A stretch of 64,000 nucleotides of DNA from Chitinophagaceae bacterium (GCA_040404005.1 JBBAJO010000017.1:5245-69244), one strand, 5' to 3'; shown: positions 7,094 to 63,850, counted from the first letter of the stretch. A program made the numbers and translations. Notes: generated by a model from the letters alone, not told the origin.

Positions 7094-9523
7094 TTACTGA
7101 AAAGAACTTCCCGTAAACTTATACGTCCTCCCCGCCTTGGTGGTCATGCTTCCGGTACTGCCTTTGTAGCTCAGCTTGAGGTTGCTGCCGACCAGTGATT
7201 TTACTTCGCAGTTGACCAGCGCGCCATCTTTCCATGAAATATTCACTTCAAAACCACCTCGAGCTTTTAAACCTTTGATCTCGCCGGTAGACCAGGCCTT
7301 CGGAATAGCGGGCAACAACTGCAGCACATTTGCGCCATCTTCCTCCACATGGCTCTGCAAAAGCATTTCTGCAATGCCCGCTGTGCCTCCGAAATTTCCG
7401 TCGATTTGAAAGGGCGGATGACCGCAGAAAAGATTTTGATAGGAACCCCCTGCATTAGACATGTTGATGCCATAATTATCGATGGGCCTCAACAGATTTT
7501 TCAACAGGCTATAAGCGCGTTCTCCATCTTTCAGCCTTGCCCAAAAATTGATCTTCCAGGCCAATGACCATCCTGTTCCGATATCCGTTCTGGCATCCAG
7601 ACTTTTCCTGGCTGCCATCGCAAGTTCGGGCGTTTTACCCGGGTCGATGGAGTTTCCGGGATACAACATGTAGAGATGCGACACGTGCCGATGGGTAGGT
7701 TCGGTTTCTTCATAGGGTTCCCGCCACTCCATCAGTCGCCCATCCGGACCGATCTGCGTCAGCGCCAGTTCTTTGTTCACGGCCCGTATCCTGTCTATCA
7801 CTTCGTCTTTTTTCTGAAGCATGTGCGCGGCATTCAGCACATTGTCGAACAGCTCCTTGATCACCTGCTGGTCGTGCGACGGTCCCATGGTGATCTGCGC
7901 CACCGAACCATCCGGCGCTTTGAAGGAGTTTTCCGGGGAGGCAGCGGGGCCAGACACCCATTTGCCGGAGCTGGGGTCTTTCACAAGCCAGTCCAGATAG
8001 AAGCGCGCCGATTCCAACATGATCGGGTATACCCTTTCAAGATATTTTTGATCGGGGTTGAATTTGAAATGCTCCCAAAGATGTTGGCAGAGCCAGGCAC
8101 CTGCGCCCAGGTGCATACCCCAACTCGGGTGTTCGCCGGGAGCGGTGAATCCCCACACGTTGGTGATGGGATGAATGGCCCAGCCATTTGCCCTGTATTG
8201 AACAGCGGCTGTTTTCTTTCCGGGTTCAACCAGGGATTCAACCAGTTCGGTCAGCGGCCCATGGCATTCGGGCAGGTTGGTGATATCTGCCGGCCAGTAA
8301 TTCATTTGAATATTGATATCCGTATGATAGTCGCCGTTCCATGGCGTCTGGATGGTATTTGCCCAGAGGCCTTGCAGATTTGCCGGTAATGTTCCTTCGC
8401 GCGATGAGGCGATCAGCAGATAGCGTCCAAATTGAAAATACAATTCCTGTAAATGCAGATCGTCGGCCTGCCGTTGATTGGCCAATCGGCGATCTGTGGG
8501 AATGGTATCTGATGTGATCCTTGATACATTCAGGCTAACCTTATCCAACAGCGATTGATGGTCGCGCACATGTCGACGCAGCAGGTTATCGTAGGTATAG
8601 GAAGATGCTTTTTCGAGTTGAGTCGCTGATGTTTTAATAGGATCGTCGCCCTTGTAAGTCGGGTAGTCCAGTTTGTAATCCGTGGCGGCGGTCAGGATGA
8701 GCGTGACCGCGTCTGCGTTCCTGACGGATATGCTGCTGTCTGATATATTGGTAGTGCCTCCTTTATTGATCGCCTTGAGTTGTACTGCGTATGCCATCCC
8801 ATCTCCGCCTTTGCCATCTTTCAAACGACCATGCATGAGCAGTGTGCCTTGGGAAGCTTTGGTGGAAAATCTTTCCGGACGGTTCAACATCGCATGAAAA
8901 CTGATCGATCCTTTTTTGTTGGCGCTGATGTTGATTACGACGGCCCTATCTGGATAGCTGGCAAATATTTCCCGCTTGAACTGGATGCCATCCTGCGTGT
9001 AGGTGATGGTTACAACGCCGCGTTGAAGATCAAGCTCGCGACGGTAGGCAGTGTAGGTTGATTTGCGATCTGTTCCCAACCATAGGTCGCCCAGGGTCTG
9101 GTAGGTGCCATAAGGAACGTCGGCTCCGTTTCCATGTCCAGATCCCGGGCCTTTGCACACCTGGGTTTTCATAGTCAGTTCCGTAGCTTCTTTATACTTT
9201 CCTTCAAACAGCAATTTCCGGATCTCCGCAAGCGCAGCAAATGCTTCGGGATTATTTTCATCATTCGGGCTGCCGGACCAAAGTGACTTTTCGTTGAGTT
9301 GGATCCTTTCCTTATTAACGTCGCCGAAGATCATCGCTCCCAAAAAACCATTGCCTATGGGGTGTGCCTTCAGCCATTCGGGATTGTTCTCCCAGCCATT
9401 GGTTTTGTCGTACACCGATGCATCTGCAGGGCGATCATACCAAATCTTTAACGGAACGGATGGTTGCGCGTGAACAGGGAGCGTTACGATGAACATGAGG
9501 ATGGCCGACACGAACTTTTTCAT
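7094..9523 (-). CDS. Glycoside hydrolase family 95 (alpha-L-fucosidase-like)
   Basis: Signal peptide; [32 protein letters not shown] and FQIDGNFG motifs. Confidence 0.95.
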
Positions 9524-15036: not shown

Positions 15037-15561
15037 CTAAGAAGCAATTTGCCGCTTCATCATCATATCGATCTGTTCATCATCGCCCAACATAAAAACG
15101 TGCTTATCAAATTCAACGAACCCGTTTTTCTTATAGAAATTGATCGCCCTTGTGTTTTCTTCCCACACGCCTAACCAAACGTAATCGGCATTTTTTTCGG
15201 TAGCCACCTGGATCGCTTTGTCGTACAACCGTTGGCCTACATGCCTGCCCTGGAATTCCTTTAAAACATAGATCCGTTCAATTTCAACAGCTTTACTGTC
15301 TTTCAGTTCAGTTTGTGACTCGCCAAAATTCAGTTTTAAATATCCGATTAGATTCTCATCCGATAACGCGAAATAAAATACGGAATGCGGATCGTTTAAT
15401 TCAGTAGTCAGCTTTTCCATCGAGAGGCCTTCGTTGAGATATTTTGCCATATTCTCGGCAGTATTGCCTTCGCGGAAAGTCTCATAAAATGTTTGTTTGC
15501 TGATTTTCTGTAAATCATCAATATCTGTAATGGTTGCTTCTCTAATGCCGATCCTGGTCAT
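15037..15561 (-). CDS. GNAT N-acetyltransferase (PaiA-like)
   Basis: GYLKLNFGESQTE, EIERIYVLKEFQGRHVG and WLGVWEENTRAINFY motifs. Confidence 0.9.
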   Translation of the reverse strand: MTRIGIREATITDIDDLQKISKQTFYETFREGNTAENMAKYLNEGLSMEKLTTELNDPHSVFYFALSDENLIGYLKLNFGESQTELKDSKAVEIERIYVLKEFQGRHVGQRLYDKAIQVATEKNADYVWLGVWEENTRAINFYKKNGFVEFDKHVFMLGDDEQIDMMMKRQIAS

Positions 15562-15849
15562 CCTGCAAAGCTATATCAAAGTGAGAATACCTGATATTCG
15601 TTTGGGCTCAAGTCATAATGCAAGAGGCCTACCGGGGCGATATATCCTTTCTGCATAGGTTCCTGTCTCGGTACTTACGGTTAACCCTATAGCGCTGACA
15701 GATCTAATCCTCATGGTTCGGATCCCAGTATGTCGGGGCAAAAAGCAGCCCTCCGCCCAACAATCAGAAAGAATCATTCGGGGGATTTAAAAGATCGGTA
15801 AGGAGCTGTCTGATATAAATCTTGCATTAGAAATATTTTGCCTATTCGT

Positions 15850-18800
15850 TTATTTAAACTCCGGCAACCTGCCCGGCGTATAGGGTGCCTTTAGCTTATC
15901 TAATGCTGCTTCCAGTTTCTGTATCTCCTCACCAATGGATTTTACTTCCTGGTAAACAGGGCGGAATTTCTTTTCCACCAGATCATAATCATCCTGGTAC
16001 GCCGCAGGATCGGCGGACGTCGATGACCACAGCGCTCCTGTAATTCTTCCAAGTCGTTGATTGATGGAAGGAACCGTTTCAAACTCACGGCCGGATTTAG
16101 TACGATCACCATTGATGGCTGTACCGGCTGCATCCAAGCGCTTCTCTATGGAAATAAATTGTTGAGAAAGTTCAAGGGGGATCGATCCGGTCTTTTGAAG
16201 AGCGGCTTTCAGGTAGTTCAATTTGTTCACCTGTTCACGCCGGTACTCCTCCGTACCGGAAACCACACGCCGCAATTCAGCCACCTTCGCGGTGAGCGCA
16301 CCCATGGCTTTTTTATCCCCTGTCTGGATACTACCCGCAGCAAGTGGAACTGCTTTAAAGGCAACTGGCTCTGAGAGTGTACTATATATCCCATCTTCAA
16401 ATTTATCCAGGCTGACTTTGTAGTTCCCGGGTAATGCCATGTGGCCGAGATCGGGCGAACTGAATGCAAATGATTCGTCGAAGCTGGCAAAACTGACCGG
16501 GCCCGTAGATTCATGCCTGAAATCCCAGGTGATCCTGTTCATACCTTTTTTAGCGGGTGCTTTGATTCGTCTTACCACCGCGCCAGTTTCATCTGTAATG
16601 GTGAATAGCAAATGAGGCTCTGGCTGCGCATCTTCCAACTTCAGCGAATCGAACGATGGGTAATAGACGGGCTGCTTGTTCTTGGTCAACTCCACTTCTT
16701 TCTCTTTTCGTTTTTCTTTGATCGTTTTAATATCGTTCTTCAAATAGTAGGTAAATGTTGCGCCAACAGGCGGGTTCGGCGTGGTATAGAAACTCTCGCC
16801 CTGAAATCCTTTTCCCCGGACACCTAATGTCATTGATGGAATAAACATGAGCGCGTCTTTTACCGGATAGATCACGGCTTCTTTTTGCAGGTCTTCCACT
16901 TTCATATTCCTGAGTGGCGTATAATCGTCCAAAACATAAAATCCCCGTCCGAACGTGGCCAGTACCAAGTCGTTCTCTCTTTTTTGAATCTCCAGATCCC
17001 TTACGGCAATGGTGGGGAGATCGCCTTTTAGTTGTATCCAATTGATACCGCCGTTGATGGTAGTGAACAGTCCGAATTCAGTGCCCACAAATAATAAATT
17101 TTTATTGACATGATCTTCCGCTACGGTATATACCGATCCTCTTTCTGGAAGGTTATTTTGTAATGCCGTCCAGGTTTTACCCGCGTCACTGCTTTTGTAG
17201 AAGTAAGGTTTGAAGTCGCCATAACGATGTTGGTTGAATACCACGTAGACGGTGTTCTTATCATGCTGAGAAGCAAGTAACTGGTATACGTAGGCGTTAG
17301 TAGGAACGCCGGCGGGATTTGTCATAGTGGTCCATGATGTTCCTCCATTCGTAGTTACATGAAGGGCGCCATCGTCTGTTCCAGCATATAACAGTTGCTG
17401 ATCCAACGGTGATTCGCTCAACGTAGTAATATTGCCATAAATATCAGTAGAACCGTTTTTCGCAACCGCATCTACACTCCATACCCTGCCCATCACTTCC
17501 ATCTTGTTCCTGTCGAGCTGCTTGCTCAGGTCAGGACTGATCACTTTCCAGTTATTCCCCCTGTCGTCTGACCGGAATACTTTATTGGCGGCGTGATAGA
17601 TCCGTTTGTTATCGAAGCGGGAAATGACCAGGGGTGCATCCCAGTTCCACCTGTAGGCGGGCTCATCATCCCGCTCCTGGGCTTTTATAGACAACATCTC
17701 GCCCGTTTTACGGTCGTACCGCACCAATCCGCCATATTGTGATTGGGCATAGATGATGTTGGGATCCGATTGATCCACCTGGGTTTCAAAACCATCACCG
17801 AGACTGGTGAAATACCAGTCAGAGTTCATAATTCCATTGGCACTTATAGTTCTCGAGGGACCTCCAATGGAGAAATTATCTTGCGTGCCACCGTGAATAT
17901 GGTAAAATGGAGAAGCATTATCGGTAGCTACTTTATAGAATTGTGTAACGGGAAGGTTGGGTTTGAATATCCAGTTGTTTCCTGCATCAAAAGATTCATA
18001 TAGTCCGCCATCGCATCCCACCAGGAAATGGTCCGTATTGGCGGGATCTATCCAGATCACGTGATTGTCTATGTGTTTGCTTTTCTCACCGAGGATTTGG
18101 AAAGTTTTGCCGCCATTGTTACTTACCTGCAGATAGGTGTCCATGGCAAAGATCTTATTGACGTCTTTCGGATCGCAGAACAGTCGTTGGTAATAGTTAC
18201 CCGAAGTTGACACTGAGCTCTGCTTCTGCCAGCTCTGGCCGCGGTCCAGCGACACGAAGGTTCCCCCTCCTTCTCGGGCTTCGATCATGGCATAGAGCAC
18301 ATCCGGATTTACAGGAGAGATGGAGATGGTTATTCTGCCCACATCGCCGGAAGGCAAACCGCTGGTCAGTTTTGTCCAGGTTTGACCAAAATCTGTGCTT
18401 TTATATAACGCTGACTCGGGGCCTCCGCCGATATAAGTAAATACTTTCCGTTGCCGTTGGTGGGCAGTGGCATAAAGGGTCCTGGAATTGCGGGGATCCA
18501 TATGGATCTCTGAAAATCCGGTATGTTCGCTCACATAAAGGACGTTGTTCCAGGTTTTCCCGCCGTCAGTGGTTTTATAGATCCCCCGCTCTCCGCCTGA
18601 GCTCCACAAGGGCCCATAGGCTGCCACGTAAACCACATCCCCGTCCGTGGGATCAATCACCAGGCTGCCAATATGTTCAGACTGCTTAAGGCCCATATTT
18701 TTCCAGCTTTTGCCTCCATCTTCCGACTTGTACAGGCCATCTCCATAGGCCACACTACGTTGGTTATTGCCTTCGCCTGTGCCCACCCAAACTACATTGG

Positions 18801-53749: not shown

Positions 53750-55195
53750 TTGCCCATGCGGATGACTTCTTTATTAATCCTCCTGATGCTTGCAGGCCAA
53801 AGCTTCACGGAGAAACCTGGCCCAGCAGCCCAGCCCAATGTGATCCTGATTTTTCTGGACGATATGGGCAATGGCGATCTGGGTGTTACCGGCGCGTTGG
53901 ACTATCAAACGCCGAATATTGACCGGATGGCCAATGAAGGCGTCCGCTTTACCAACTTTGTCACCGCGCAGGCAGTGTGCAGTGCGTCAAGAACAGGCTT
54001 ACTCACTGGTTGTTATCCTAACCGCCTCGGTATCTCGGGTGCGCTTTTTCCGACAGACAGTATTGGCATCAATCCTGCGGAAACAACCATGGCGGAAATG
54101 TTGAAGCAAAAAGGTTACGCTACTTCGGCTATCGGTAAATGGCATTTAGGTCATCATAAAATGTTCTTGCCCCTGCAACATGGATTTGATGAATATTTTG
54201 GCATACCGTATTCGAACGATATGTGGCCAGTGATGTTCGATGGCACCCCGGCGCCCGAAACCCATCGCAAATTCAAGCTTCCCGTATTGCCGTTGATAAA
54301 GGGCAATGAAAAATTTGCGGAAATTAAAACCCTGGATGATCAGGCTACGCTGACAAAAAGATATACGGAAGAAGCGGTATCGTTTATCAAAAGGAATTCC
54401 AAGAAGCCATTTTTTCTGTACATGCCTCACTCCATGCCCCATGTCCCCATTGCGGCATCTGCACAATTTAAGGGGAAGAGTAAGCAAGGTATGTTTGGTG
54501 ATGTGATGATGGAGATCGACTGGTCCGTTGGAGAGATTATCCGAACGCTGAAAGAGCAGGGTATCGACAAAAATACCATCGTGATCTTTACCAGCGATAA
54601 CGGCCCCTGGTTGAACTTTGGGAATCATGCGGGCTCTTCCAGTGGCTTTCGTGAGGGCAAAGGCACGGTTTGGGAAGGTGGTTTGAGGGTGCCCTGCATC
54701 GTTAGGTGGAAGGGCAGTTTGCAGGAAGGAGTTGTTTGTAATAAGCTGAGTTCCACCATTGATCTTATGCCCACTATAGCAGCCATTACGGGGACCAGAT
54801 TGCCTGCCCATAACATAGATGGCGTAAACCTGTTGCCTTTGCTGGAAGGTAAAGATGTCACTCCCCGCCGCGAGTTCTACTATTACTATGGTAAAAATGG
54901 ATTGAGGGCCGTGCGGTTAGATGATTGGAAGCTGATGCTGCCGCATAATGGACAAAGTTATGAGAACCAATTGCCGGGTAATGATGGTTTCCCTGGAGAA
55001 ACCAAAATTGTTCCCGTGGCCCTGGCGCTTTATGATTTGCGCCGAGATCCCGGCGAGCGTTACGATGTGAAAGACAAATACCCGGAGATCGTTGCTACGC
55101 TCCAGAAATTGGCTACTCAAGCCAGGGAAGACCTTGGAGATGACATCACGCAGGTGGTTGGAAAGAACGTCAGACCTGTGGGCAGAATGAATTAG
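53750..55195 (+). CDS. Sulfatase (S1, Cys-type)
   Basis: PNVILIFLDD, CSASR (CxAxR variant), GKWHLG, PHVP and FTSDNG motifs. Confidence 0.93.
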   Translation: MPMRMTSLLILLMLAGQSFTEKPGPAAQPNVILIFLDDMGNGDLGVTGALDYQTPNIDRMANEGVRFTNFVTAQAVCSASRTGLLTGCYPNRLGISGALFPTDSIGINPAETTMAEMLKQKGYATSAIGKWHLGHHKMFLPLQHGFDEYFGIPYSNDMWPVMFDGTPAPETHRKFKLPVLPLIKGNEKFAEIKTLDDQATLTKRYTEEAVSFIKRNSKKPFFLYMPHSMPHVPIAASAQFKGKSKQGMFGDVMMEIDWSVGEIIRTLKEQGIDKNTIVIFTSDNGPWLNFGNHAGSSSGFREGKGTVWEGGLRVPCIVRWKGSLQEGVVCNKLSSTIDLMPTIAAITGTRLPAHNIDGVNLLPLLEGKDVTPRREFYYYYGKNGLRAVRLDDWKLMLPHNGQSYENQLPGNDGFPGETKIVPVALALYDLRRDPGERYDVKDKYPEIVATLQKLATQAREDLGDDITQVVGKNVRPVGRMN

Positions 55196-55224
55196 GCGGG
55201 TAGTGGTACAGAAAGTGCTGGCGA

Positions 55225-55545
55225 ATGCAACTAAAAAAAGTAACGGTGAAAAAAGTATTATTGATTTTCCTCTATCAATTGGGTATTTTCCTATCATACA
55301 CTATAGTACTTTCACTAAAGTTTGTTTATGATGAATGGCCTAATCCGATAGGCAACGGATTGCAGACGTGGATCTGCTGGCTTGTCCATATTACAGTAGT
55401 GATATTTTTGATTTATTATCGCAGGCACCAGTTTACCAAGTCGGAAGTTTTGATTCGTGTTGTGGCTCTGATAACCCCGATAATTTTATACATGGTATTC
55501 AGTAAACCAATTGATGAACTCTTGTGGGAATGGAGAGCAGACTAG
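55225..55545 (+). CDS. Small membrane hypothetical protein (AT-rich)
   Basis: Three hydrophobic segments; the start is uncertain. Confidence 0.5.
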   Translation: MQLKKVTVKKVLLIFLYQLGIFLSYTIVLSLKFVYDEWPNPIGNGLQTWICWLVHITVVIFLIYYRRHQFTKSEVLIRVVALITPIILYMVFSKPIDELLWEWRAD

Positions 55546-55564
55546 TTTTTTAAATCTGATAAAT

Positions 55565-55873
55565 ATGAAGATTGTTGATTTTTTTAGTAAATGTTGCTTT
55601 ACCGGTATAGTATGCCTTTTTATCAGTATACCGCTCTTTAGCCAGATTAAGGTAAAAGGAGCAGGAAATGAATCATTCCGACCTGCCTTAAATAATTTTA
55701 TTCCATACAAGTTCGTCTATAAGGACAGGCTTCTTGATCTATAATTAAATAATAACGATCTTGCAAATGCGAGAAAAACAGCTCAGCTGATAGTTACCTT
55801 GCTAGTGAAAAAAGATAATCAGGCTGTTAGAAATGTTAAAGACAAAGCCAAAGCAATATTGAATATAAAGTAA
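55565..55873 (+). pseudogene. Disrupted ORF, possibly a deleted O-antigen-ligase-like/TPR-tail gene
   Basis: The frame continues through TAA at 55742-55744: ...DRLLDL*LNNNDLANARKTAQLIVTLLVKKDNQAVRNVKDKAKAILNIK. The family guess is from recall only. Confidence 0.4.
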
Positions 55874-56016
55874 GCATGTATTTATAACTGTATGTATTCC
55901 CCTGAATGCCCAACTCCACTTTGCCAGCTATCCTTGGTGAGCTGAAAGCGTAAGTGAATGGGCAAAGATAATTTTTGTACTTGGCGATGCGGAAGTTTAA
56001 TGCGAAACAACCGCGG

Positions 56017-56115
56017 CTACGCCAGCGTTTCATCCACCAGATTAAGAGTAGACTCATAATTTTTCTTCACCGCTTCACTCATCGCCATTTCACAGGTTTT
56101 GGTGGATGAATTGTA
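56017..56115 (-). repeat. Stranded diverged copy of the last 32 codons plus stop of the Dld-type gene (partner 60062..60160)
   Basis: Translates YNSSTKTCEMAMSEAVKKNYESTLNLVDETLA* against YYSSTKTCEMAMSEAVKKNYESILYLVDESLA*; 81/99 nt identical by manual alignment. Confidence 0.95.
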
Positions 56116-56540
56116 CAACGTTTCCCCCTGTGTGTGCTTATGGGAACTGTCGCGTCTTTTCTAAACTAAAAATGTATTTCGTTAAACGAATTGGTTCCTT
56201 TATTAAGTCTTTAGTAAGATCCGGGGTTTAATCATATTTTTTCTTTACGTGTCTGGTGGAGTATTATGTATTCGAGTTTTGCCCTTGAATGGCCTTGATG
56301 ATATGTTTACGGGGGAAAGACGACGATATTATGTGAAAAAACGCTGATTCGTTGTGGAAAACACCAGAGGGGATCCCCATCGTATTATGATCTTTGATTT
56401 TGAAGGGGATGGACAGATCCCACTTCATTAACACTTCTACCAGCATGGTATGGAGATGCCTATTCTTTCTGAGTGACTAAATAGTCGTTAGGGCAAACAA
56501 TTCATGTTAAAAATAATATTTAGCTAATCATTCATCCACT

Positions 56541-56783
56541 ATGATAACCGTCATCAGACGCATAGATAAAATGAACTATCTGATTCGCAGTAAGAGAACT
56601 GGAACTCCCATTCAATTTGCCGAAAAACTTGAGATATCCGAAAGCACTTTGTATCAGCATTTGAACGACCTGCGGGAACTTGGAGCGCCGATAGCCTATG
56701 ATAAGTTTCGGCAAACCTACTACTACGAAACTTGCGGCGAAATCAAAATCCATTTCGAAAAAGTACATGACAAGAATATATAG
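56541..56783 (+). CDS. Small winged-HTH protein (Bacteroidota TGTP-type, resembling the HTH module of WYL regulators but with no WYL domain)
   Basis: RTGTPIQFAEKLEISESTLYQHLNDLRELGAPIAYDKFRQTYYY. Confidence 0.88.
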   Translation: MITVIRRIDKMNYLIRSKRTGTPIQFAEKLEISESTLYQHLNDLRELGAPIAYDKFRQTYYYETCGEIKIHFEKVHDKNI

Positions 56784-56950
56784 TATATCATACTATCCGT
56801 TTTCAGATATAAAGTACAAAAGCTGTTAGATATTCGTCTACAATATTGGAAGCTGTGATTTGCCATTGGCTGATGTTATAATGCCAATCCCAAGCTACAT
56901 CTAACCCAATATTATAGGCAGTTATTTAATCTTGCTTTACACTTCCTCGA

Positions 56951-57457
56951 TTATTTTATTTGTTCAAGTTTATCTCTATAACTTTCAGGTATACTTGCGA
57001 TATCGATTATCTGCAATGTTGGAACATGAGAAGTTGGCAATGTATTTTTTACTAGAATTTCATTTATAATCGGATCTGATATTTTCCACATTGCACCAGT
57101 TGCTGGATCAATTATCAACATGCCAAGTAAACCTCCAATGAGTAAATTTCCCCAATACCAACCATCAATTTTGAAATTAATAGGTACTATTTTTTCTTCG
57201 TAACCTGCAGCAGAAATTCTCACTCTATATTCCGCTCTTGTGAAAAATCCCGCACCTGCTTTTAATTCTACAGTCGCGGGGCTGGAGCCTTTATATATTT
57301 CATTTCCTTTTTTATTTGTAATACTGATGCTTGCGCCTTTTGGTTCTGTCCTAACATTCACATGATAAGTAGATCGACTAACAATAGAGGCACAACCCGA
57401 AAGAATGACGGCAAGAAAAAGAGTTAGTCCTGAGGTTTTGAAAATATATTTTATCAT
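56951..57457 (-). CDS. PEGA-like lipoprotein
   Basis: Lipobox LSGCASI; VRTEPKGASISI; glycine-rich GNLLIGGLLGMLIIDPATGAMW. Confidence 0.85.
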   Translation of the reverse strand: MIKYIFKTSGLTLFLAVILSGCASIVSRSTYHVNVRTEPKGASISITNKKGNEIYKGSSPATVELKAGAGFFTRAEYRVRISAAGYEEKIVPINFKIDGWYWGNLLIGGLLGMLIIDPATGAMWKISDPIINEILVKNTLPTSHVPTLQIIDIASIPESYRDKLEQIK

Positions 57458-57575
57458 TTTACCGGATTTATAATGAATAAAATAACTGTTTTTCTTTAGA
57501 AATCACTGATGTCTATGATATTTTAACAGATTGGCGATTTAGTTTCATACAAGTTGTAGTATCGCTGCATAGGGT

Positions 57576-58280
57576 TCAGGGTTTCTTTTTAATCCTTTTG
57601 TCGGCAACCGGTTTACCGAAGGGTATGGCGATATGTCCGAGGAAGGCCAGGTTCTCTAAGCCTATGCCATAAGTGTATGCGGTATTGACCATGAGTCCCA
57701 GTTTGAGGTTCTTGTTGATCTGCCAATGATGGGCCACGGTGAGCGGAATGGCCCAGTCCTCGAAATAAGACCAGTAAGGCTGGGCACTCATATAGGTAAT
57801 GGTAGTTGGGTTGGCCGGATCATCTGTGAAATAGAACGGAAAGTTGCTTTTTTGAATCTGCACCTGAAAACCTGACCCGAAGGACCATGACCCGTTTTTC
57901 CCGCTGGGGAAGCTACGGTAATAATTCATGGTGAAGTGCCAGCGCCTCGTTACCCGTTTGAGGTCCATCCATACGGCCAGGGGATCATTACCGATTCCCA
58001 AAGGCATTCTCCATTGGGCATTCTGAAAGTAAAGGGAGACCGCGGATCTGGCGTTGAAGTGGTAATTGAGTTCAATGCGGTCTATTTTTCCCGGATGCAC
58101 CGTTTTGCCCGGCTTTGTGGGGTAGCCGGGGGGAGGGGGGGCTATTGTATAGAAAAGATCGAGGAAAAGCCCGCTTCCTACGGAAGCTTCCCACCTGGAG
58201 GTGGGAAGCCTTGTAGATTTTTCCTGTGCCATTGACAGGGAAGCTTGGAACAGGAGCAGCATTAGGAGGATTACACGCAT
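57576..58280 (-). CDS. Putative outer-membrane beta-barrel hypothetical protein
   Basis: Signal peptide; alternating aromatic/hydrophobic beta-strand pattern throughout. Confidence 0.6.
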   Translation of the reverse strand: MRVILLMLLLFQASLSMAQEKSTRLPTSRWEASVGSGLFLDLFYTIAPPPPGYPTKPGKTVHPGKIDRIELNYHFNARSAVSLYFQNAQWRMPLGIGNDPLAVWMDLKRVTRRWHFTMNYYRSFPSGKNGSWSFGSGFQVQIQKSNFPFYFTDDPANPTTITYMSAQPYWSYFEDWAIPLTVAHHWQINKNLKLGLMVNTAYTYGIGLENLAFLGHIAIPFGKPVADKRIKKKP

Positions 58281-58339
58281 AGTAACTGTTTGAAAGCGAA
58301 ATATAGGAACAGGATGCTCCGTTATGTTTTTTAACTTAT

Positions 58340-59821
58340 CTAATCAATGACTAAGCTAACCATAACCGCATTCTTTCCATAGGGTCGGAAACCATTTAAT
58401 AATGACGGATCCATCCCATTGGTAGGTACGCGCAGACCAGCCCAAACCGCATTGCTGCCGATGACCCCATAATGCTCGATGCGGGAGTCGGCTGTTCCTT
58501 CCAACAGAACCTTAACCAGGGGGGCAACTCCAGCGCTGGCCAGTGAAGATAAGGTAGACCTGGTGGCAGAGTCCCCAACCAGTCCTACAGCTGCAGTCAG
58601 CAGGTTGGACCATTCAGCGGCGTTTCTGCTGAACATATTTGGCTTATCATACTCATAGAGAAACATCATCTTGTCGGGCTGCCCAGGGCACCAGGGGCCA
58701 ACGCTGATTCCAATACTAACATACTCATTCTTACTATCTTGCATCCTCCTCACCTTATTGCGCTTGATTCTCACGTAGCCCCAAGCCTGCGCCTTTCTAT
58801 CTATCTGGATGATCGGATTGGATTGCGGGTTCTGATTGGGTATGGTAACATCTGAAATGTCACGGGATACAGCTACTCCAAATTCTATCCTGTTCTCAAA
58901 GATGCCGTAAGCGTTGTTCAGCAATGTCCAGCGGCCGTCCTTCACATACAGGGTTGACAAACATGGGGACGGGTTCGGATCAGCTACCTGATTCTGCAGA
59001 ACGATCGAGTTGTATTGTTCATCGGTAAGGGTAACCCTGTAATTCTCCGTTTCAATTGGTATGTTCCCATTACTGAAATCATCGAGTGTCAATCCGTCAT
59101 CATATGTAAGGATATAGGTAGGATGCTCGTACGCATATTCATCATTTACGATGACGTCAGGGAGTAAGTTTCCGGATGCGTCGTACGACTTTCCATAATT
59201 CCATTCATCTGTCGTCAGCGGGTGATAGCTTACGGCATATCCCATATCTGACTGTGAGGGCCAATTCTCGGAGTATGGGAAATAGATCATATAAGGTATC
59301 CCATCAGGGCTGCTATTGTAAACACTGCTGGTTCCTGATGAACCGATTGAAGAATTGTTGATTACAGTTTTTATATCATAGTAAGCTGCAACTTGATCCA
59401 AGTTTGTGAAAGCGTTGTTGCTGTACTTACTACTATTTGGATACCTGCCACTGATGAAGGTTCCTACGAAAGCATCCCGAAAACGTATAAGAAAATCGGG
59501 CTTAACTCCTGCCAGCGTAATGTTTCTGGCATTGAATATTTCCTTGAAACTCAGATCTTCATCTGTGCCAGATTTAGCGAGTTTTGCAGCAATGAAGCCG
59601 TTAAACTCCTTTCTGAGTTGAGGGTTTGAGGAGAAGAGGCCTTGTAATACCCAGGAGGCACGCTCAAATTTGTCAACTGTTTCTTTCTCTTTTGAATTAA
59701 GTGTTTTTAGGGGGCTTGAATCCATCGACTCCGTCATTGACTTGCTCTGGTCTTTTTTACATGATGAAAATACCAATAGCATGAAGAAAAACAGCGTACT
59801 AAATGTAGTAGGGAATTTCAT
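58340..59821 (-). CDS. Large lipoprotein of unknown function (493 aa)
   Basis: Lipobox FSSCKKD; IYFPYSENW and VNDEYAYEHP motifs; late hydrophobic/amphipathic segment LLTAAVGLVG...AGVAPLVKVLL. Confidence 0.8.
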   Translation of the reverse strand: MKFPTTFSTLFFFMLLVFSSCKKDQSKSMTESMDSSPLKTLNSKEKETVDKFERASWVLQGLFSSNPQLRKEFNGFIAAKLAKSGTDEDLSFKEIFNARNITLAGVKPDFLIRFRDAFVGTFISGRYPNSSKYSNNAFTNLDQVAAYYDIKTVINNSSIGSSGTSSVYNSSPDGIPYMIYFPYSENWPSQSDMGYAVSYHPLTTDEWNYGKSYDASGNLLPDVIVNDEYAYEHPTYILTYDDGLTLDDFSNGNIPIETENYRVTLTDEQYNSIVLQNQVADPNPSPCLSTLYVKDGRWTLLNNAYGIFENRIEFGVAVSRDISDVTIPNQNPQSNPIIQIDRKAQAWGYVRIKRNKVRRMQDSKNEYVSIGISVGPWCPGQPDKMMFLYEYDKPNMFSRNAAEWSNLLTAAVGLVGDSATRSTLSSLASAGVAPLVKVLLEGTADSRIEHYGVIGSNAVWAGLRVPTNGMDPSLLNGFRPYGKNAVMVSLVID

Positions 59822-59857
59822 AAATAATTTTTTGTTTAGCTAAATGTACCTTCCGCT

Positions 59858-59876
59858 ACTCCGACAGGATTGGAGT
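59858..59876. promoter_or_regulatory. Palindrome ACTCC-N9-GGAGT, candidate operator upstream of the lipoprotein cassette
   Basis: actccgacaggattggagt, 37-55 nt upstream of the ATG at 59821 (minus strand). Confidence 0.45.
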
Positions 59877-60061
59877 GAAGTATTCTATTCTAAAGAATCG
59901 ATGTTAAAATACTCTCACGCGCTTAACTAATCAGCGAATAAGTCATTATGGAGATCAACAAAATCGGGTGGATAAAATATATATTCACGGCAAAGTATTC
60001 AATAAGAATAAGGTGAATTCTATACCTTGAGATGCTTAAGCTTAATGTGAAACCTGTAGGG

Positions 60062-62887
60062 CTAGGCCAAACTCTCATCAACCAGGTATAATATAGACTC
60101 ATAATTTTTCTTCACGGCCTCACTCATCGCCATCTCGCAGGTTTTGGTGGAGGAATAGTAGCCGTCGTACGTTTTTTGCTGGACTTCTACAGCTTCCGGA
60201 AGAGTAGCTGATGCCGTAAGTTCGGGAATCAGAAACCCTCGATCTCCCGCCATTCCACAGCAGCCTGCACTAAAGGGTACAGTCACCTCTGCCGCAAAGT
60301 GTTTTGCAACCCGAACAAATTTATCTTCGGTGTTCATTTTCTGTAAAGAACAAACAGGATGCACTACGATATTTTTCTGCCTCTTCAAAGTTGATGCTTT
60401 TGGCACTACCATGTCGTTCAGGAAATCTACGCTGTCCAAAATAGTCAGTTGGTCAAATTTACCTTTTCGCACATCATCAAGCGCGGGACGAACATGATGA
60501 AGGGTATAAGCGCAGGAACTAACGTCAATGACTACGGGTAGTTTTCCTTCATCGCTGCTTTCCCATAGCTGGTCAATGATCTTATTTGCCGTGTAGTTTG
60601 CCGCTGCGCCATAACCTTTTGACGAATAGATCTGGCTGCAGCAACTGCCTTCTGCATTTTTTAAAACATTGACGCCGATGCCGGTTTTTTTACAGATACT
60701 CAGAAAGGTCTCCATCAGATTTTTTTCTTTCCCCTCATAGACGCCCAGCGTTCTGCTGATACAGGATGGGAAGTAAACGATGGCTGCATCTTTCGCAGTC
60801 CGTTGATCATTGATGGAACCCAGGTCAGGAGGATAAAGTAGTTGTTCGCTCCAAAGCGGCATTTCCGGGAAGAATTTCCTGGCGAACCCGGTGAAGCCCC
60901 GCATAAAATTCTTGCCAAACAGTTTATTGAACGTAATCCCTGTTTTCAAAGCTGTTCTGGCCAGTCGCTCCACGGTCCGGAAATTTTTTGCGACCGACAA
61001 CGCGATCTTGTTGGCGAATGGCGAATGGTTCTCCCTCCTCAACCGTTTCACCAAATCACCGGTATTGATGTCCACCGGACAAGCTGTAGCGCATAATCCA
61101 TCTACGGCGCAGGTATCGAGTACATCATACTGATACTGTTTCAGCAGGAGTTCATAATCGGACTTGTTCCCAGCCAGTTCAAGGCTTTTCAATACCCTTC
61201 GGATCACTATCCTCCGGCGCGGCGTGGTGGTGATATCCCTGCTCGGACATTTGTGTTCGCAGTATCCGCATTCTATGCAACGGTCCACTTCCTCTTCAAC
61301 GGGAGGAAGTTCTTTCAGATTTTTGATATGGGCTTCGCGATCATCGTTAATGATGACGCCTGGGTTCAGGAGGCCTTCAGGGTCTATCAGCTGTTTGATC
61401 GATTTGATGATCTCATAGGCTTCGCCACCCCATTCGGTTTCCACAAAAGGCGCCATATTCCTACCGGTACCGTGTTCTGCTTTCAGTGCGCCCTGGTATT
61501 TGTCCACCACCATCGTCACCACTTCCCGCATAAACTCGTCGTACCGCCGGACTTCAGCATCGGTATTGAAAGATTGCGTGACCACAAAATGGATATTACC
61601 ATCTTTAGCATGGCCAAAGATGATGGCATTATCGTAATGATATTTCTTGAAAAGATCCTGCAGGTCGAGGATAGCATCGCCCAGTTTTTCGATCGGGAAG
61701 GCGATGTCTTCTAAAATCACCGTGGTTCCACTCGCCCTCACGGCACCTACTGCAGGGAAGAGACCTTTTCTCACTTTCCAAAGGAAGTCCTGCTCCTTGG
61801 GGTCGGTGGTGAATATTGGCGCGTTGATCAGCGATAGATCAGCAGACGATGACAGGAAGTTATTGACCCTTTCATCTAACATCGCATGACTGTCTTCCTG
61901 AAACTCGATCAGCAATGCGGCTGCGCCCTCTGGTAATGTTTTTACAATGGTTGGCATGCCGGGCATGTTTTCTACTGAACTAAGGGAGGCCCTATCCATT
62001 AATTCTACCATAAGGGCGCCTGCGATGGTTAGGGGGATGATCGCCTGGCATGCATCATAGATGGTTGGGAAGTATAGTAAGGCAGTGGATTTATATGGGT
62101 AATCAGGTACTGTTTTGAGCACGGCTTCCGAGATGAAAGCCAGTGTTCCTTCCGCTCCGATCAGCAGGTGCGCCAGGATATCCAGCGGATGTTGATGGTC
62201 GATGAATGCATTGAGCGAATAGCCCACCGTGTTCTTGGTGAGGTATTTTTTTCGGATCAGGGTGTGTAAAGAAGGATTTGCGGCAATGCGGTCCCGGATA
62301 GCTGCAAGGCCCAGGAACAGTTTTCCGCATTCGATTTCAAAAAGTTCGTAATCCGCAGGATCTTCCGTAGTGAAGATATTGCCATCGGGCAGCATGAACC
62401 GGATGTATTTGGTAGTATGATAGGAGTTCAGCGCTACGCCGCAACACATGCCACTGGCATTGTTAGAGAGGATGCCGCCCATCATGGCTGCGCTGATGCT
62501 GGAGGGATCGGGCCCGATCTTTCGCTGGTGTTTTTTTAAGTAGGTGTTGACCATGGCGCCGGTGATGCCCGGCTGCACACGCACCAAAAGGCCGTTCTCT
62601 TCGATCCTGATCTTGTTCCAAAACTGGCTAAGGTCCACCAGAATGCCGTCTGTAATGGCCTGTCCCGATAAGCTCGTTCCGCCGGTGCGGAAAACAAGCG
62701 GAATACGATGCTGCTGAGAGAATTTGAACAGCGCGACGATCTCCGCTTCGCTGATCGGTTGAACGATGGCTTTGGGAAGCAGGTAATAAAAGCCAGCATC
62801 GGAGGCGAACGACACCAGGTCAATAAAGCGATTTTTTATCCTGGTCTCAGGGAGGATCTTCAGCAATTCTTCTTTCAAAGCCGTCAT
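60062..62887 (-). CDS. FAD-binding / 4Fe-4S / CCG-domain oxidoreductase (Dld-II-type D-lactate dehydrogenase)
   Basis: FRTGGTSLSGQA, HAKDGNIHF, AEHGTGRNM, CIECGYCEHKCP, CAVDGLCATACP and CCGMAGDRG motifs. Confidence 0.92.
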   Translation of the reverse strand: MTALKEELLKILPETRIKNRFIDLVSFASDAGFYYLLPKAIVQPISEAEIVALFKFSQQHRIPLVFRTGGTSLSGQAITDGILVDLSQFWNKIRIEENGLLVRVQPGITGAMVNTYLKKHQRKIGPDPSSISAAMMGGILSNNASGMCCGVALNSYHTTKYIRFMLPDGNIFTTEDPADYELFEIECGKLFLGLAAIRDRIAANPSLHTLIRKKYLTKNTVGYSLNAFIDHQHPLDILAHLLIGAEGTLAFISEAVLKTVPDYPYKSTALLYFPTIYDACQAIIPLTIAGALMVELMDRASLSSVENMPGMPTIVKTLPEGAAALLIEFQEDSHAMLDERVNNFLSSSADLSLINAPIFTTDPKEQDFLWKVRKGLFPAVGAVRASGTTVILEDIAFPIEKLGDAILDLQDLFKKYHYDNAIIFGHAKDGNIHFVVTQSFNTDAEVRRYDEFMREVVTMVVDKYQGALKAEHGTGRNMAPFVETEWGGEAYEIIKSIKQLIDPEGLLNPGVIINDDREAHIKNLKELPPVEEEVDRCIECGYCEHKCPSRDITTTPRRRIVIRRVLKSLELAGNKSDYELLLKQYQYDVLDTCAVDGLCATACPVDINTGDLVKRLRRENHSPFANKIALSVAKNFRTVERLARTALKTGITFNKLFGKNFMRGFTGFARKFFPEMPLWSEQLLYPPDLGSINDQRTAKDAAIVYFPSCISRTLGVYEGKEKNLMETFLSICKKTGIGVNVLKNAEGSCCSQIYSSKGYGAAANYTANKIIDQLWESSDEGKLPVVIDVSSCAYTLHHVRPALDDVRKGKFDQLTILDSVDFLNDMVVPKASTLKRQKNIVVHPVCSLQKMNTEDKFVRVAKHFAAEVTVPFSAGCCGMAGDRGFLIPELTASATLPEAVEVQQKTYDGYYSSTKTCEMAMSEAVKKNYESILYLVDESLA

Positions 62888-63058: not shown

Positions 63059-63850
63059 TTGATGAGATTTACGCTATTTGTTGTTTCTATCCTCGCCTGT
63101 ATGTCGGTCTATGGCCAGGCATTGAATTCATTGCCTAAGTCGTACTACGCCAACTACGCCAAAAAGCCTCCGGTGATCGACGGCAAAATTGGCAAGCGGG
63201 AATGGAAATCCGTTCCCTGGTCCGATAATTATGTGGACATCGAAGGAGATCAAAAGCCATTGCCCCGGTTTGCAACCAGGATGAAGATGTTATGGGATGA
63301 CGACTCTCTCTATATTCTGGCGGATATGGAAGAGCCGCAACTTTGGGCAACATTGACCGATTACGATGCGATCATTTTCCAGGATCATGATTTTGAGATC
63401 TTTATCGATCCCGATGATGATGGCAATGATTACATCGAGATCGAGATCAATGCCCTTGGAACCGTAATGGATCTGCATATGGGAAAGTCGTATAGCAGAG
63501 GCGGCCCCATGGATATGGCCTGGAACACCGTTGGGATGAGAAGCGCAGTTGGCCTTAACGGCACATTGAATAAGAACGATGATATCGATAAGGGCTGGGT
63601 GGTTGAGTTTGCCATCCCTTTTTCATCCATGAGTAAAGGGGAGAAGAAATACAAACCCACGCCCGAGAAACCATGGCGGATCAATTTTTCCCGTGTGGAA
63701 TGGCAGCTGGAAAACGATGGTACCAGCTACAGCAAAAAGATCGGCGCTAATGGAAAACCATTGCCGGAAAACAACTGGGTCTGGACTCCCCAGGGCGCGA
63801 TCAATATGCATATTCCGGAGAAGTGGGGATACCTGCATTTCATAAAATGA
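63059..63850 (+). CDS. Carbohydrate-binding family 9-like (CBM9/DOMON) protein, secreted
   Basis: PPVIDG, KMLWDDDSLY, DHDFEIFIDP, EIEINALGT and WRINFSRV motifs. Confidence 0.9.
   Translation: MMRFTLFVVSILACMSVYGQALNSLPKSYYANYAKKPPVIDGKIGKREWKSVPWSDNYVDIEGDQKPLPRFATRMKMLWDDDSLYILADMEEPQLWATLTDYDAIIFQDHDFEIFIDPDDDGNDYIEIEINALGTVMDLHMGKSYSRGGPMDMAWNTVGMRSAVGLNGTLNKNDDIDKGWVVEFAIPFSSMSKGEKKYKPTPEKPWRINFSRVEWQLENDGTSYSKKIGANGKPLPENNWVWTPQGAINMHIPEKWGYLHFIK

Follow-up and report, generated by a model that had tools for sequence, protein, structure and literature searches.

A displaced dld gene end within a strain-variable gene patch of a Chitinophagaceae bacterium

RESULTS

The dld gene and its duplicated end

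The window analyzed here, a 64,000-nucleotide stretch of a Chitinophagaceae assembly, carries a dld gene (positions 60062 to 62887, minus strand) whose product is a 941-amino-acid FAD/Fe-S oxidoreductase according to Pfam and NCBIfam. In this architecture, GlcD-like FAD domains are fused to a GlcF/GlpC-like 4Fe-4S and CCG part, and D-lactate dehydrogenase is the name that the sources give to the product. Because the alignments to the GlpC and GlcF profiles reach the last residues, the conserved domain includes the final 33 amino acids. A CBM9-domain gene (63059 to 63850, plus strand) is the conserved left-hand neighbor of dld in the clade; beyond it, outside the island, two relatives (L046 and L062) carry an IS3-family element. 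A sulfatase gene identified by Pfam (53750 to 55195, plus strand), convergent with dld, forms the conserved right-hand anchor of a variable region. The dld gene is a mosaic with respect to the L037 lineage, with 93 to 99% identity over nucleotides (nt) 750 to 2250, 67 to 83% over nt 2251 to 2826, and breakpoints near nt 750, 1650, and 2250, which shows homologous crossovers within the gene.

The end of dld is present twice in the same orientation. BLAST, a repeat search, and alignment identified a 151-nt direct repeat between window positions 55965 to 56115 (copy A) and 60010 to 60160 (copy B; G000:C17 65254 to 65404 in BLAST coordinates) at 76 to 78% identity (repeat D1, 76% ungapped in the repeat search; 78% with an E value of 3.9e-26 in BLAST), and whole-genome BLAST found these two copies as the only ones in the 3.37-Mb genome. 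The repeat unit comprises the last 33 codons of dld, stop included, and 52 nt of 3′ flank. Over the 99 coding nucleotides (56017 to 56115 in copy A and 60062 to 60160 in copy B, both minus strand), there are 18 mismatches; 10 codons differ only synonymously, 4 change the amino acid (N/Y, T/I, N/Y, and T/S), and both copies terminate with TAG. These counts reproduce exactly those of an earlier sequence-only reading and confirm the repeat it had described. That reading placed the end of similarity at the stop codon, whereas the alignment continues 52 nt further with 34 of the 52 positions identical, so the repeat unit is a gene end together with its native 3′ flank. Behind copy B, this flank (F′, 60010 to 60061, minus strand) is truncated and diverged, and its homology to the flank of copy A ends at 60010. 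A 22-nt stretch is identical in both copies (60094 to 60115, minus strand, and 56049 to 56070); the identical core is 34 nt long in L037.

Copy B is the functional end of dld, comprising its working last 32 codons and stop in frame, and copy A is a frame-dead fragment, the displaced former last 32 codons and stop. The peptides of the two ends are 88% identical. The copy B peptide matches the consensus of functional relatives and is identical to that of L040; its nucleotide sequence is identical to that of L062 as far as the 22-nt core. Upstream, the similarity of copy A stops sharply at 56115/56116, and stop codons immediately before it close the frame. An assembly chimera was rejected because both copies are found, similarly ordered, on single contigs from other samples and assemblies (L045, L046, and L049 at 98.7 to 99.4% and L047 at 99.99%); an additional contig (L043) covers the side from dld to the neighboring gene p493.

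Genes between and beyond the two copies

Adjoining the working dld end is a three-gene accessory operon on the minus strand. Its first gene, p493 (58340 to 59821), encodes a predicted lipoprotein (LVFSSC lipobox) with no match in Pfam, NCBIfam, PADLOC, or PDB and is present in 1 of 301 genomes of the order. It is followed by p234 (57576 to 58280), a secreted protein with a signal peptide and no assigned family, and by a 168-amino-acid PEGA-domain lipoprotein (56951 to 57457; Pfam PF08308, E value of 7.5e-5; LSGC lipobox). Homologous operons occur in unrelated contexts, and p234 accompanies p493 homologs in L057, L058, and L060. The joint between F′ and p493 recurs in L063, in which dld is 85% identical and p493 is 97% identical.

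Between the operon and copy A lies a gene for a stand-alone HTH_11 regulator of 80 amino acids (56541 to 56783, plus strand; Pfam PF08279), separated from copy A by a spacer (56116 to 56540). The first ~185 nt of the spacer are ~80% conserved in three lineages, and it contains a palindrome, TTCGTTAAACGAA, at 56178 to 56190. The spacer yielded no Rfam match and no covariation support for an RNA.

On its other side, copy A is still joined to the native downstream flank of a dld gene (F and x, 55685 to 56016, minus strand). Copy A with F-x is collinear with the functional dld end and downstream sequence of L040 and L041 (87.9% over 428 nt), and via L046 the collinearity with L040 runs on through the genes Wzy_C and p212 (96% over 2229 nt). 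The window lacks 2,019 bp that are present in L046 and L048, comprising Wzy_C and the C-terminal part of p212, and the deletion joint (55685 to 55698) shows AATTT microhomology. The adjacent segment S1 (55197 to 55681, plus strand) holds the small membrane-protein gene orf106 (55225 to 55545) and the stump of p212. S1 is 96% identical to its counterpart in L037, where it sits on the opposite side of the HTH gene, and this identity holds between lineages whose flanks are only 82 to 88% identical.

Lineages and alleles at the locus

The junction between the spacer and copy A (…GAAACGTTG joined to TACAAT…) lies at codon 909 and falls on the same base in the window, L037, and L051. The HTH proteins of these three lineages are 100%, 88%, and 71% identical, and the HTH gene lies beside the dld-end fragment in all of them. 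What follows copy A differs: F-x-S1 in the window, the sulfatase gene directly in L037, and HipA_C with p68 in L051. L037 has the HTH gene and copy A and lacks the lipoprotein genes; the HTH gene moves with copy A, not with the lipoprotein genes. Since the junction is common to three lineages, the displacement is old and was not made by the 3.9-kb unit of HTH and lipoprotein genes that had been proposed as the entering cassette. Microhomology at this junction amounts to ~6 nt at best (AAACGT), and the match is uncertain.

Copy A and copy B stem from different alleles, in line with the sequence-only reading. Copy A and its flank differ from the functional ends of L040 and L037 by 11+7 and 14+6 mismatches (coding plus flank), compared with 18+18 from copy B, and a recent tandem, segmental, or other in-genome duplication was rejected on this ground. 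The fragment in L037 (rA) and its flank are collinear with the functional end of L062, which abuts the sulfatase gene. The dld-end fragments of the window and L037 lie at positions that a working dld end occupies elsewhere.

Three alleles with sharp boundaries occur in one population with 99% identical flanks. In the empty allele (L062), dld directly adjoins the sulfatase gene and the two stop codons overlap; in L042 the two genes are 92 nt apart. The window allele is also found in L045 and L047, and a longer allele in L046 and L048 retains Wzy_C and p212, adding 2 kb. An empty site thus exists in this population, as anticipated, in a different form: a dld with the 56017-type end joined to the DNA left of 56017 was looked for and not found, and L062 joins dld directly to the sulfatase gene. 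It is not a simple excision product of the window allele; the 820 bp left of copy A are missing as well, and its dld changes to a tail of a third type at the 3′ edge of the 22-nt identical stretch. None of six cluster members showed the predicted excision product, in which a dld with an A-type tail would continue into F-x. Scars of this kind are not a general feature of dld 3′ ends: a dld-end fragment was found in only 1 of 73 dld-bearing species genomes of the family.

The pattern of substitutions indicates that copy A is decaying. All four replacements between the two copies lie on copy A, and the A copies carry 4, 5, and 3 replacements compared with 0 to 1 in functional ends. Changes between rA and the L051 fragment are spread near evenly over the codon positions (6, 5, and 7), in contrast to those between functional ends (1, 0, and 15; 0, 0, and 5). 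The mostly synonymous differences between copies A and B had been taken as a sign that both evolved as functional ends; given these counts, they do not establish present or recent selection on both copies. The open 33-codon frame and stop are retained in all three lineages, and copy A with the adjacent spacer is 78 to 86% conserved, compared with 49 to 71% at the four-fold sites of the sulfatase gene and 72 to 85% at the third codon positions of the HTH gene. We attribute the higher conservation to a younger age of the module, possibly with gene conversion; weak selection is possible.

Classes of mobile DNA considered

No tyrosine recombinase was found on the 69-kb contig, no recombinase or transposase domain was detected by Pfam in the open reading frames (ORFs) of the 52- to 64-kb interval, and no tRNA was found nearby. 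Matches to PF00589 lie only on other contigs (seven tyrosine-recombinase genes elsewhere in the genome), and PF00665 had no match in the assembly. Recombinases were likewise absent in or beside the insert in the carriers L037, L045, L046 (inside the island), and L051. The earlier remark that no integrase is present thus holds, and its absence favors the second of the two options given with it, a recombination-driven exchange.

A site-specific integrative element found little support: no integrase lies in or adjoining the insert, the right-hand neighbor of copy A and the gene contents vary among the window, L037, and L051, and the 22-nt identical stretch is embedded in a 78% repeat. A transposon or insertion sequence-bounded composite was rejected, with no transposase domain and only short AT-rich inverted repeats, as was a polymorphic toxin or orphan immunity array (rhs, CDI, or T6SS), given that both ends encode the same conserved CCG-domain oxidoreductase tail. 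Two features of C-terminal displacement are present: a start-less 3′ fragment follows, in like orientation, an intact gene whose 3′ end is of a different allele, and it keeps the DNA that natively follows the gene (copy A with F-x-Wzy_C-p212 as in L040; rA joined to the sulfatase gene as in L062). So is the feature of a flexible genomic island, namely, different gene content at one locus between flanks that are 99% identical.

DISCUSSION

The gap between dld and the sulfatase gene is a strain-variable patch reshuffled by ordinary recombination, a familiar footprint rather than a new mobile element. We favor, with a probability of roughly 0.6, a history in which a single, old illegitimate join anchored by homology preceded repeated rounds of homologous recombination. 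An ancestor of at least three lineages would have taken up DNA carrying its own dld 3′ end and downstream genes. One side of the join would have been homologous, within dld, and the other illegitimate; there, the HTH gene with its upstream spacer, at the far end of the incoming DNA, was presumably fused to the resident dld at codon 909. The last 33 codons of the resident gene would thereby have shifted downstream and since decayed, while the enzyme remained complete through the imported end, in agreement with the proposal that copy A is the displaced former end and copy B its supplied replacement. The mechanism may be homology-facilitated illegitimate recombination, and a Campbell-type single crossover would yield the same product. 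The same process is known for other genes (PMC5361080 and PMC3240628).

Dld, the sulfatase gene, and the two copies of the dld end probably anchored later homologous recombination between strains. By this means, the p493-p234-PEGA operon may have been brought in behind the working dld end, and the block F-x-Wzy_C-p212-orf106, which normally follows dld in other strains, may have become attached to copy A; the window strain would then have lost part of this block. We observe directly the junction common to three lineages, the collinear stretches, the three alleles, and the mosaic structure; that the first join was illegitimate, and in what order the later events came, we infer. No single step connects the sampled alleles; as L062 has a third tail type, an unsampled intermediate is assumed, and extra events are required to place the F-to-orf106 block on one side of the HTH gene in L037 and on the other in the window.

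The same data can be read as the relic, or a trans-mobilized satellite, of a site-specific integrative element with an att site in the dld 3′ end, which brought a replacement end, in the manner of prophages e14 and 21 at icd, and left copies A and B as attR and attL. Direct repeats with an identical core flank the insert, L062 switches sequence type exactly at the core edge, three lineages share a conserved HTH end of the insert, and the genome has seven tyrosine-recombinase genes elsewhere. We nonetheless consider it improbable, as none of the carriers examined has a recombinase in or next to the insert, both the contents and the right-hand neighbor vary by carrier, the "element" of L037 would be made up of what is chromosomal DNA in the window, the repeats are just 76 to 78% identical and include native 3′ flank, and the scar was found in only 1 of 73 dld-bearing genomes of the family. 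Slightly less doubtful is an integrase-free unit that is still mobile, a circular or linear copy with a dld-end homolog entering and leaving by RecA-dependent single crossover (Campbell type) at either dld-end copy, so that the repeats would be functioning docking sites and not just a scar. It would account for the finding of one downstream block behind copy B in L037 and behind copy A in the window, for the resemblance of L062 to a B-by-A deletion product, and for the recurrent F′-p493 joint in L063, whose cassette is far more conserved than dld. Repeats of 99 to 151 nt at 78% identity are a poor RecA substrate, however, the expected excision product of the window allele is missing from the six cluster members, and rare events over a long time explain the pattern equally.

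It is quite unlikely that a whole second dld, tandem or xenologous, once lay adjacent and that deletion of its first 908 codons left copy A. Some relatives do have two full dld homologs (G012 and G453), and the outcome could not be told apart from the layout seen now, but no carrier keeps more than 33 codons, the junction falls on the same base in three lineages, and two events would be required where one suffices. It seems very improbable that copy A is kept for a function, whether as a 33-codon mini-ORF starting at TTG or within a transcript that is complementary to the end of the dld mRNA. The frame and stop kept in three lineages, the TTG and purine-rich tract conserved just upstream (AGGAGG in L051), and the conservation above sulfatase four-fold sites would fit such a role; against it, replacements strike conserved residues (T→A, E→V, and S→W), changes between A copies are even over codon positions, the conservation equals that of third positions in the neighboring HTH gene, and neither an RNA family match nor covariation was found.

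Under the favored history of an old join and later recombination, the locus offers a population-resolved example of a housekeeping-type gene end replaced without an integrase, in which the left-over dld fragment records, and perhaps assists, later gene exchange. There is a slim chance that the duplicated dld end is a working integrase-free docking system, in which the DNA following the dld allele of any neighboring strain can be captured at either copy. If so, copies B and A would each be followed by a cassette slot, the two slots lying side by side with the conserved HTH gene and spacer as a fixed divider, and the freshwater Chitinophagaceae population would swap surface-protein, Wzy, and toxin-antitoxin genes there. 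A lesson for annotation is that a short in-frame duplicate of a gene end marks an old recombination joint and a small accessory patch; unless relatives are compared, it should be taken neither for an att site nor for proof of selection on both copies. The value lies in the aggregate pattern of such scars rather than in the single dld locus.

Prophage e14 and phage 21 integrate into icd of Escherichia coli and leave the icdC pseudogene; their insert supplies a diverged replacement of the last icd codons, the original end becomes a dead fragment on the far side, and the copies differ mostly synonymously. The dld locus resembles this arrangement in its replacement end, its dead original on the far side, and its mostly synonymous differences. 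The phages encode an integrase and excise precisely, whereas no integrase was found at dld, and boundaries and contents vary by carrier. Insertion with long target duplication, said to have been described by Nobusato and colleagues in Gene in 2000, reportedly places accessory genes between direct repeats of roughly 100 to 500 bp with no transposase or integrase, the repeats being near-identical copies of one target. At dld, accessory genes are likewise bracketed by direct repeats with neither enzyme, but the repeats share 78% identity and derive from different alleles.

Homologous recombination in the flanks reportedly swaps flexible genomic islands that lie between syntenic core genes (López-Pérez et al. 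2014, PMC4033161). The dld-sulfatase locus is similar in having different or no genes in co-occurring strains, with 99% identical flanks and a mosaic flanking gene, and differs in its very small size (0 to 7 kb) and in its internal gene-end duplicate, which serves as a second anchor. Orphan 3′ ends produced by C-terminal displacement are known from rhs, CDI, and T6SS effector loci and have been attributed to homology-facilitated illegitimate recombination (Kirchberger et al. 2017, PMC5361080, citing Jackson et al. 2009 and de Vries and Wackernagel 2002). At dld, as in those loci, the gene keeps a constant 5′ part and receives a new 3′ end, along with downstream genes, from incoming DNA, the start-less old end has moved downstream with its own downstream DNA, and no dedicated recombinase is involved, with ordinary homologous replacement also occurring at the same locus. 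Unlike those loci, dld encodes a metabolic oxidoreductase rather than a polymorphic toxin and has one displaced end rather than an array, and since both ends encode the same function, no new activity was gained. The scar at dld is of an ordinary and already familiar type.

Organization of the dld locus

The dld gene (60062-62887, minus strand) encodes a 941-aa protein in which GlcD-like FAD domains are fused to a GlcF/GlpC-like Fe-S and CCG part. Pfam and NCBIfam family profiles extend to the C-terminal residues of the protein, which makes the last 33 codons part of the fold. A second copy of these codons (copy A, 56017-56115) lies in the same orientation as the working end (copy B, 60062-60160), and whole-genome BLAST finds dld-end sequence at exactly two places in the genome. 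The mismatch tally of the sequence-only reading was confirmed (18 of 99 nt, ten synonymous codons, and four replacements), but its statement that similarity ends at the stop codon was wrong: the match continues 52 nt into the 3′ flank. The resulting 151-nt match (55965-56115 against 60010-60160; 78%, E value of 3.9e-26) was also recovered as a direct repeat by the repeat search. Similarity breaks off sharply 5′ of codon 909, upstream of which the frame of copy A is shut by stops. Between the copies lie the genes of a lipoprotein (p493), a secreted protein (p234), and a PEGA-domain lipoprotein and, on the opposite strand to these, that of an 80-aa HTH_11 protein (56541-56783, plus strand). The layout with both copies was reproduced on independent contigs from other samples (L045, L046, and L049 at 98.7 to 99.4%; L047 at 99.99%), which excludes an assembly error, including the chimera considered earlier, as far as assemblies can show.

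Searches of NCBIfam, PADLOC, and PDB sequences gave no match for any of the three proteins of the lipoprotein operon; within the order, 1 of 301 genomes has p493. The proposal that the cassette always adjoins dld was rejected because its operon has homologues in unrelated surroundings that contain no fragment of dld. In a more distant lineage (L051; HTH protein 71% identical), the order is sulfatase, p68, HipA_C, dld-end fragment, and HTH, with the HipA_C kinase gene and its 68-aa partner thus between the fragment and the sulfatase gene. L051 (3813-5046) and L061 (15-2943), both Logan contigs of run SRR27216459, share an exact 30-nt overlap, and the join places a p478-p218-PEGA operon downstream of and codirectional with the HTH gene, the opposite orientation to that in the window; the first 14 to 23 nt of L061 resemble an Illumina adapter. 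AT-rich inverted repeats of 16 to 17 nt flank the window's operon (56774-56789 and 59971-59986, also 57439-57455; 88 to 94% complementary), and they could be tied to this difference in orientation or be due to chance in AT-rich DNA.

Alleles in relatives

A comparison with 41 species-representative genomes, in which the downstream regions of four orthologues were inspected, was uninformative and was dropped, as the dld orthologues were 53 to 65% identical and synteny was absent. Contigs encoding closer dld proteins from a large protein collection (99, 89, 87, and 85% identity) were decisive, and L046/L048 and L051 were reached by a contig search with the window's HTH protein. A cluster member of the window's dld protein (P0174), with the C terminus …EALG versus …ESLA, led to contig L062. 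None of six dld cluster members carries an A-type C terminus, and the spacer motif had no match in the genome-collection scan. A metagenome scan for the 22-nt core identical in copies A and B, over a set without close relatives, matched only L063.

In the direction of dld, the window reads dld, F′ (60010-60061, a truncated and diverged version of the native 3′ flank F), p493, p234, PEGA, HTH, copy A, F, x (the DNA after F; F plus x, 55685-56016), S1 (55197-55681), and sulfatase. The order in L037-L039 is dld, F, S1 with orf106, 222 nt, HTH, an A-type copy (rA), and sulfatase; L040/L041 reads dld, F, x, Wzy_C, and p212, and L042 has dld and sulfatase convergent and 92 nt apart. L062 is an empty allele from the same sample of origin as L046, in which the dld and sulfatase genes converge, their stops overlapping, with no intervening sequence. 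Both of its flanks are 99% identical to those of the window, and the island boundaries are sharp, with zero SNPs within 200 nt on either side. Strain variants of the same population with an identical HTH protein (L046/L048) keep 2,019 bp between x and S1 that code for the remainder of a 212-aa protein (p212) together with Wzy_C, an O-antigen ligase/polymerase-like protein of 585 aa; in the window, a deletion joint with AATTT microhomology (55685-55698) leaves a 77-aa stump ORF (55511-55744). G+C content is 0.34 to 0.41 over 55000-57600 (S1, x, F, copy A, HTH, and PEGA) versus 0.45 to 0.52 in dld and the sulfatase gene and farther out.

A second variable spot lies on the other side of dld, where L046 holds an IS3-family element (15489-16243; HTH_Tnp_1 and rve) and L062 holds rve fragments with several small ORFs (8274-8854); the genome assembly itself has no rve match. 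In L063, an insertion of about 2.2 kb separates dld from the CBM9 gene, and the source contig of the window ends 17 nt past the window end (64000), just after the CBM9 gene.

Position and decay of copy A

The junction of the spacer (56116-56540, between copy A and the HTH gene) with codon 909, …GGAAACGTTG followed directly by TACAAT…, is common to the window, L037, and L051, and in L037 it is present with all three lipoprotein-operon genes absent. Such a distribution indicates that the junction arose once, before the three lineages split, and that the acquisition of today's 3.9-kb cassette did not create it; framing the locus as a mobile 3.9-kb cassette fails on the L037 arrangement. Copy A, F, x, Wzy_C, and p212 of the window and L046 are collinear with the DNA after the functional dld of L040, at 88% between the window and L040 over A-F-x and at 96% between L046 and L040 over 2,229 nt, compared with only 79% for the dld bodies. 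Likewise, rA and the sulfatase gene of L037 are collinear with the functional end and sulfatase gene of L062, apart from one 22-nt indel. Copy A thus occupies the position of the working dld end in other genomes. The core idea of the sequence-only reading holds: an imported dld end displaced an old one.

Relative to the consensus, the working ends of six genomes have 0 to 1 changes, and the A copies have 4, 5, and 3 replacements. Differences among working ends fall nearly all at third codon positions (1, 0, 15 and 0, 0, 5), while the two A copies of L037 and L051 differ about equally often at all three positions (6, 5, 7), a pattern indicating that copy A is decaying. These counts do not uphold the claim that synonymous bias shows both copies to be under selection; the bias between copies A and B reflects how two functional alleles diverged ahead of the displacement, together with ongoing constraint on copy B. 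Copy A and the adjoining spacer are 78 to 86% conserved, versus 49 to 71% at four-fold sites of the sulfatase gene, a level comparable to HTH third positions (72 to 85%). This match suggests that the HTH and copy A module postdates the species split and was itself exchanged, although the conservation possibly reflects weak constraint or gene conversion.

Mosaicism and searches for mobility and RNA signals

Mosaicism extends into dld, where the identity of the window to L037 is 76 to 86% over nt 1 to 750, 93 to 99% over nt 750 to 2250, and 67 to 83% over the last 575 nt (nt 2251 to 2826); between L037 and L040, values of 97 to 99% are reached only at about nt 1650 and then persist through the rest of the gene. 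Import of the divergent 575 nt with the cassette was ruled out, as the empty allele has the same 575 nt. The window and L037 share 96% identity over the 485-bp S1, which contains the 106-aa membrane-protein gene orf106 (55225-55545, plus strand), with flanking genes at 82 to 88%; S1 lies in the dld-to-HTH interval in L037 and the copy A-to-sulfatase interval in the window. It is single-copy in the genome and was rejected as a repeat element. The F′-p493 joint recurs in L063 (p493 97% and dld 85% identical), whose p493 homologue (612-2029) is split into two overlapping frames, possibly through a frameshift or sequencing error.

The absence of an integrase was borne out: Pfam found no recombinase or transposase domains among the ORFs of 52 to 64 kb, and all seven tyrosine-recombinase matches in the genome are on other contigs. 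No tRNA or tmRNA was found at the region, and the repeat search yielded no meaningful terminal inverted repeats. The sequence-only reading had also suggested checking whether dld 3′ ends carry variable cassettes across Bacteroidota; dld is present in 73 of 401 genomes of the family, and the extra end fragment is in 1 of these 73, the window's own genome, so dld is not a general integration site. A bold but unlikely reading is that both copies of the gene end serve as live, integrase-free docking sites at which cassettes are exchanged.

RNA explanations of the locus were rejected, since Rfam (54.9 to 60.3 kb) and the tRNA and tmRNA searches were empty and covariation was absent from the spacer and copy A on either strand. 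Promoter and terminator scans gave matches not above those in shuffled sequence. The noncoding spacer upstream of the HTH gene (56116-56470) contains blocks conserved across three lineages, including a palindrome, TTCGTTAAACGAA (56178-56190), that is a candidate operator. A hairpin at about 56405-56425, also among these blocks, has two compensatory GC-to-AU changes in L051; the spacer lacks Rfam matches and overall covariation.

Proposed origin and comparison with known systems

We propose that the displacement goes back to a single ancient event of homology-facilitated illegitimate recombination, and a Campbell-type single crossover would give the same product. One side of the incoming DNA would have paired with dld, and its opposite end would have undergone illegitimate joining at codon 909; the incoming DNA would have supplied a working end and downstream DNA terminating in the HTH gene, displacing the resident last 33 codons. 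The sulfatase gene still adjoins this resident end in L037, as it adjoins the whole dld in L042 and L062. Later steps are all compatible with homologous recombination. The segment after the working end may have been swapped (F-S1 in L037; F′ with the p493 operon in the window and L063), and recombination inside copy A could have added a dld end-F-x-Wzy_C-p212-orf106 block that came from a different strain. In the window, copy A combines an A-type 5′ junction with an L040/L037-type flank. The window strain underwent the 2-kb deletion at the microhomology, and L062 lacks the island either through loss or through never having acquired it. The L062 tail is copy B-like up to the 22-nt core and then of a type resembling rA, as expected if copy B recombined with an A copy abutting the sulfatase gene. 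We infer the order of events, as this presumed progenitor of L062 is not among the sampled alleles.

The displaced-end footprint at dld is of a kind already known. Both e14 and phage 21 integrate into icd, and the dld locus resembles these cases but differs from them in lacking an integrase and a fixed boundary. At the population level, it behaves like a miniature flexible genomic island (PMC4033161). [quoted passage not shown]
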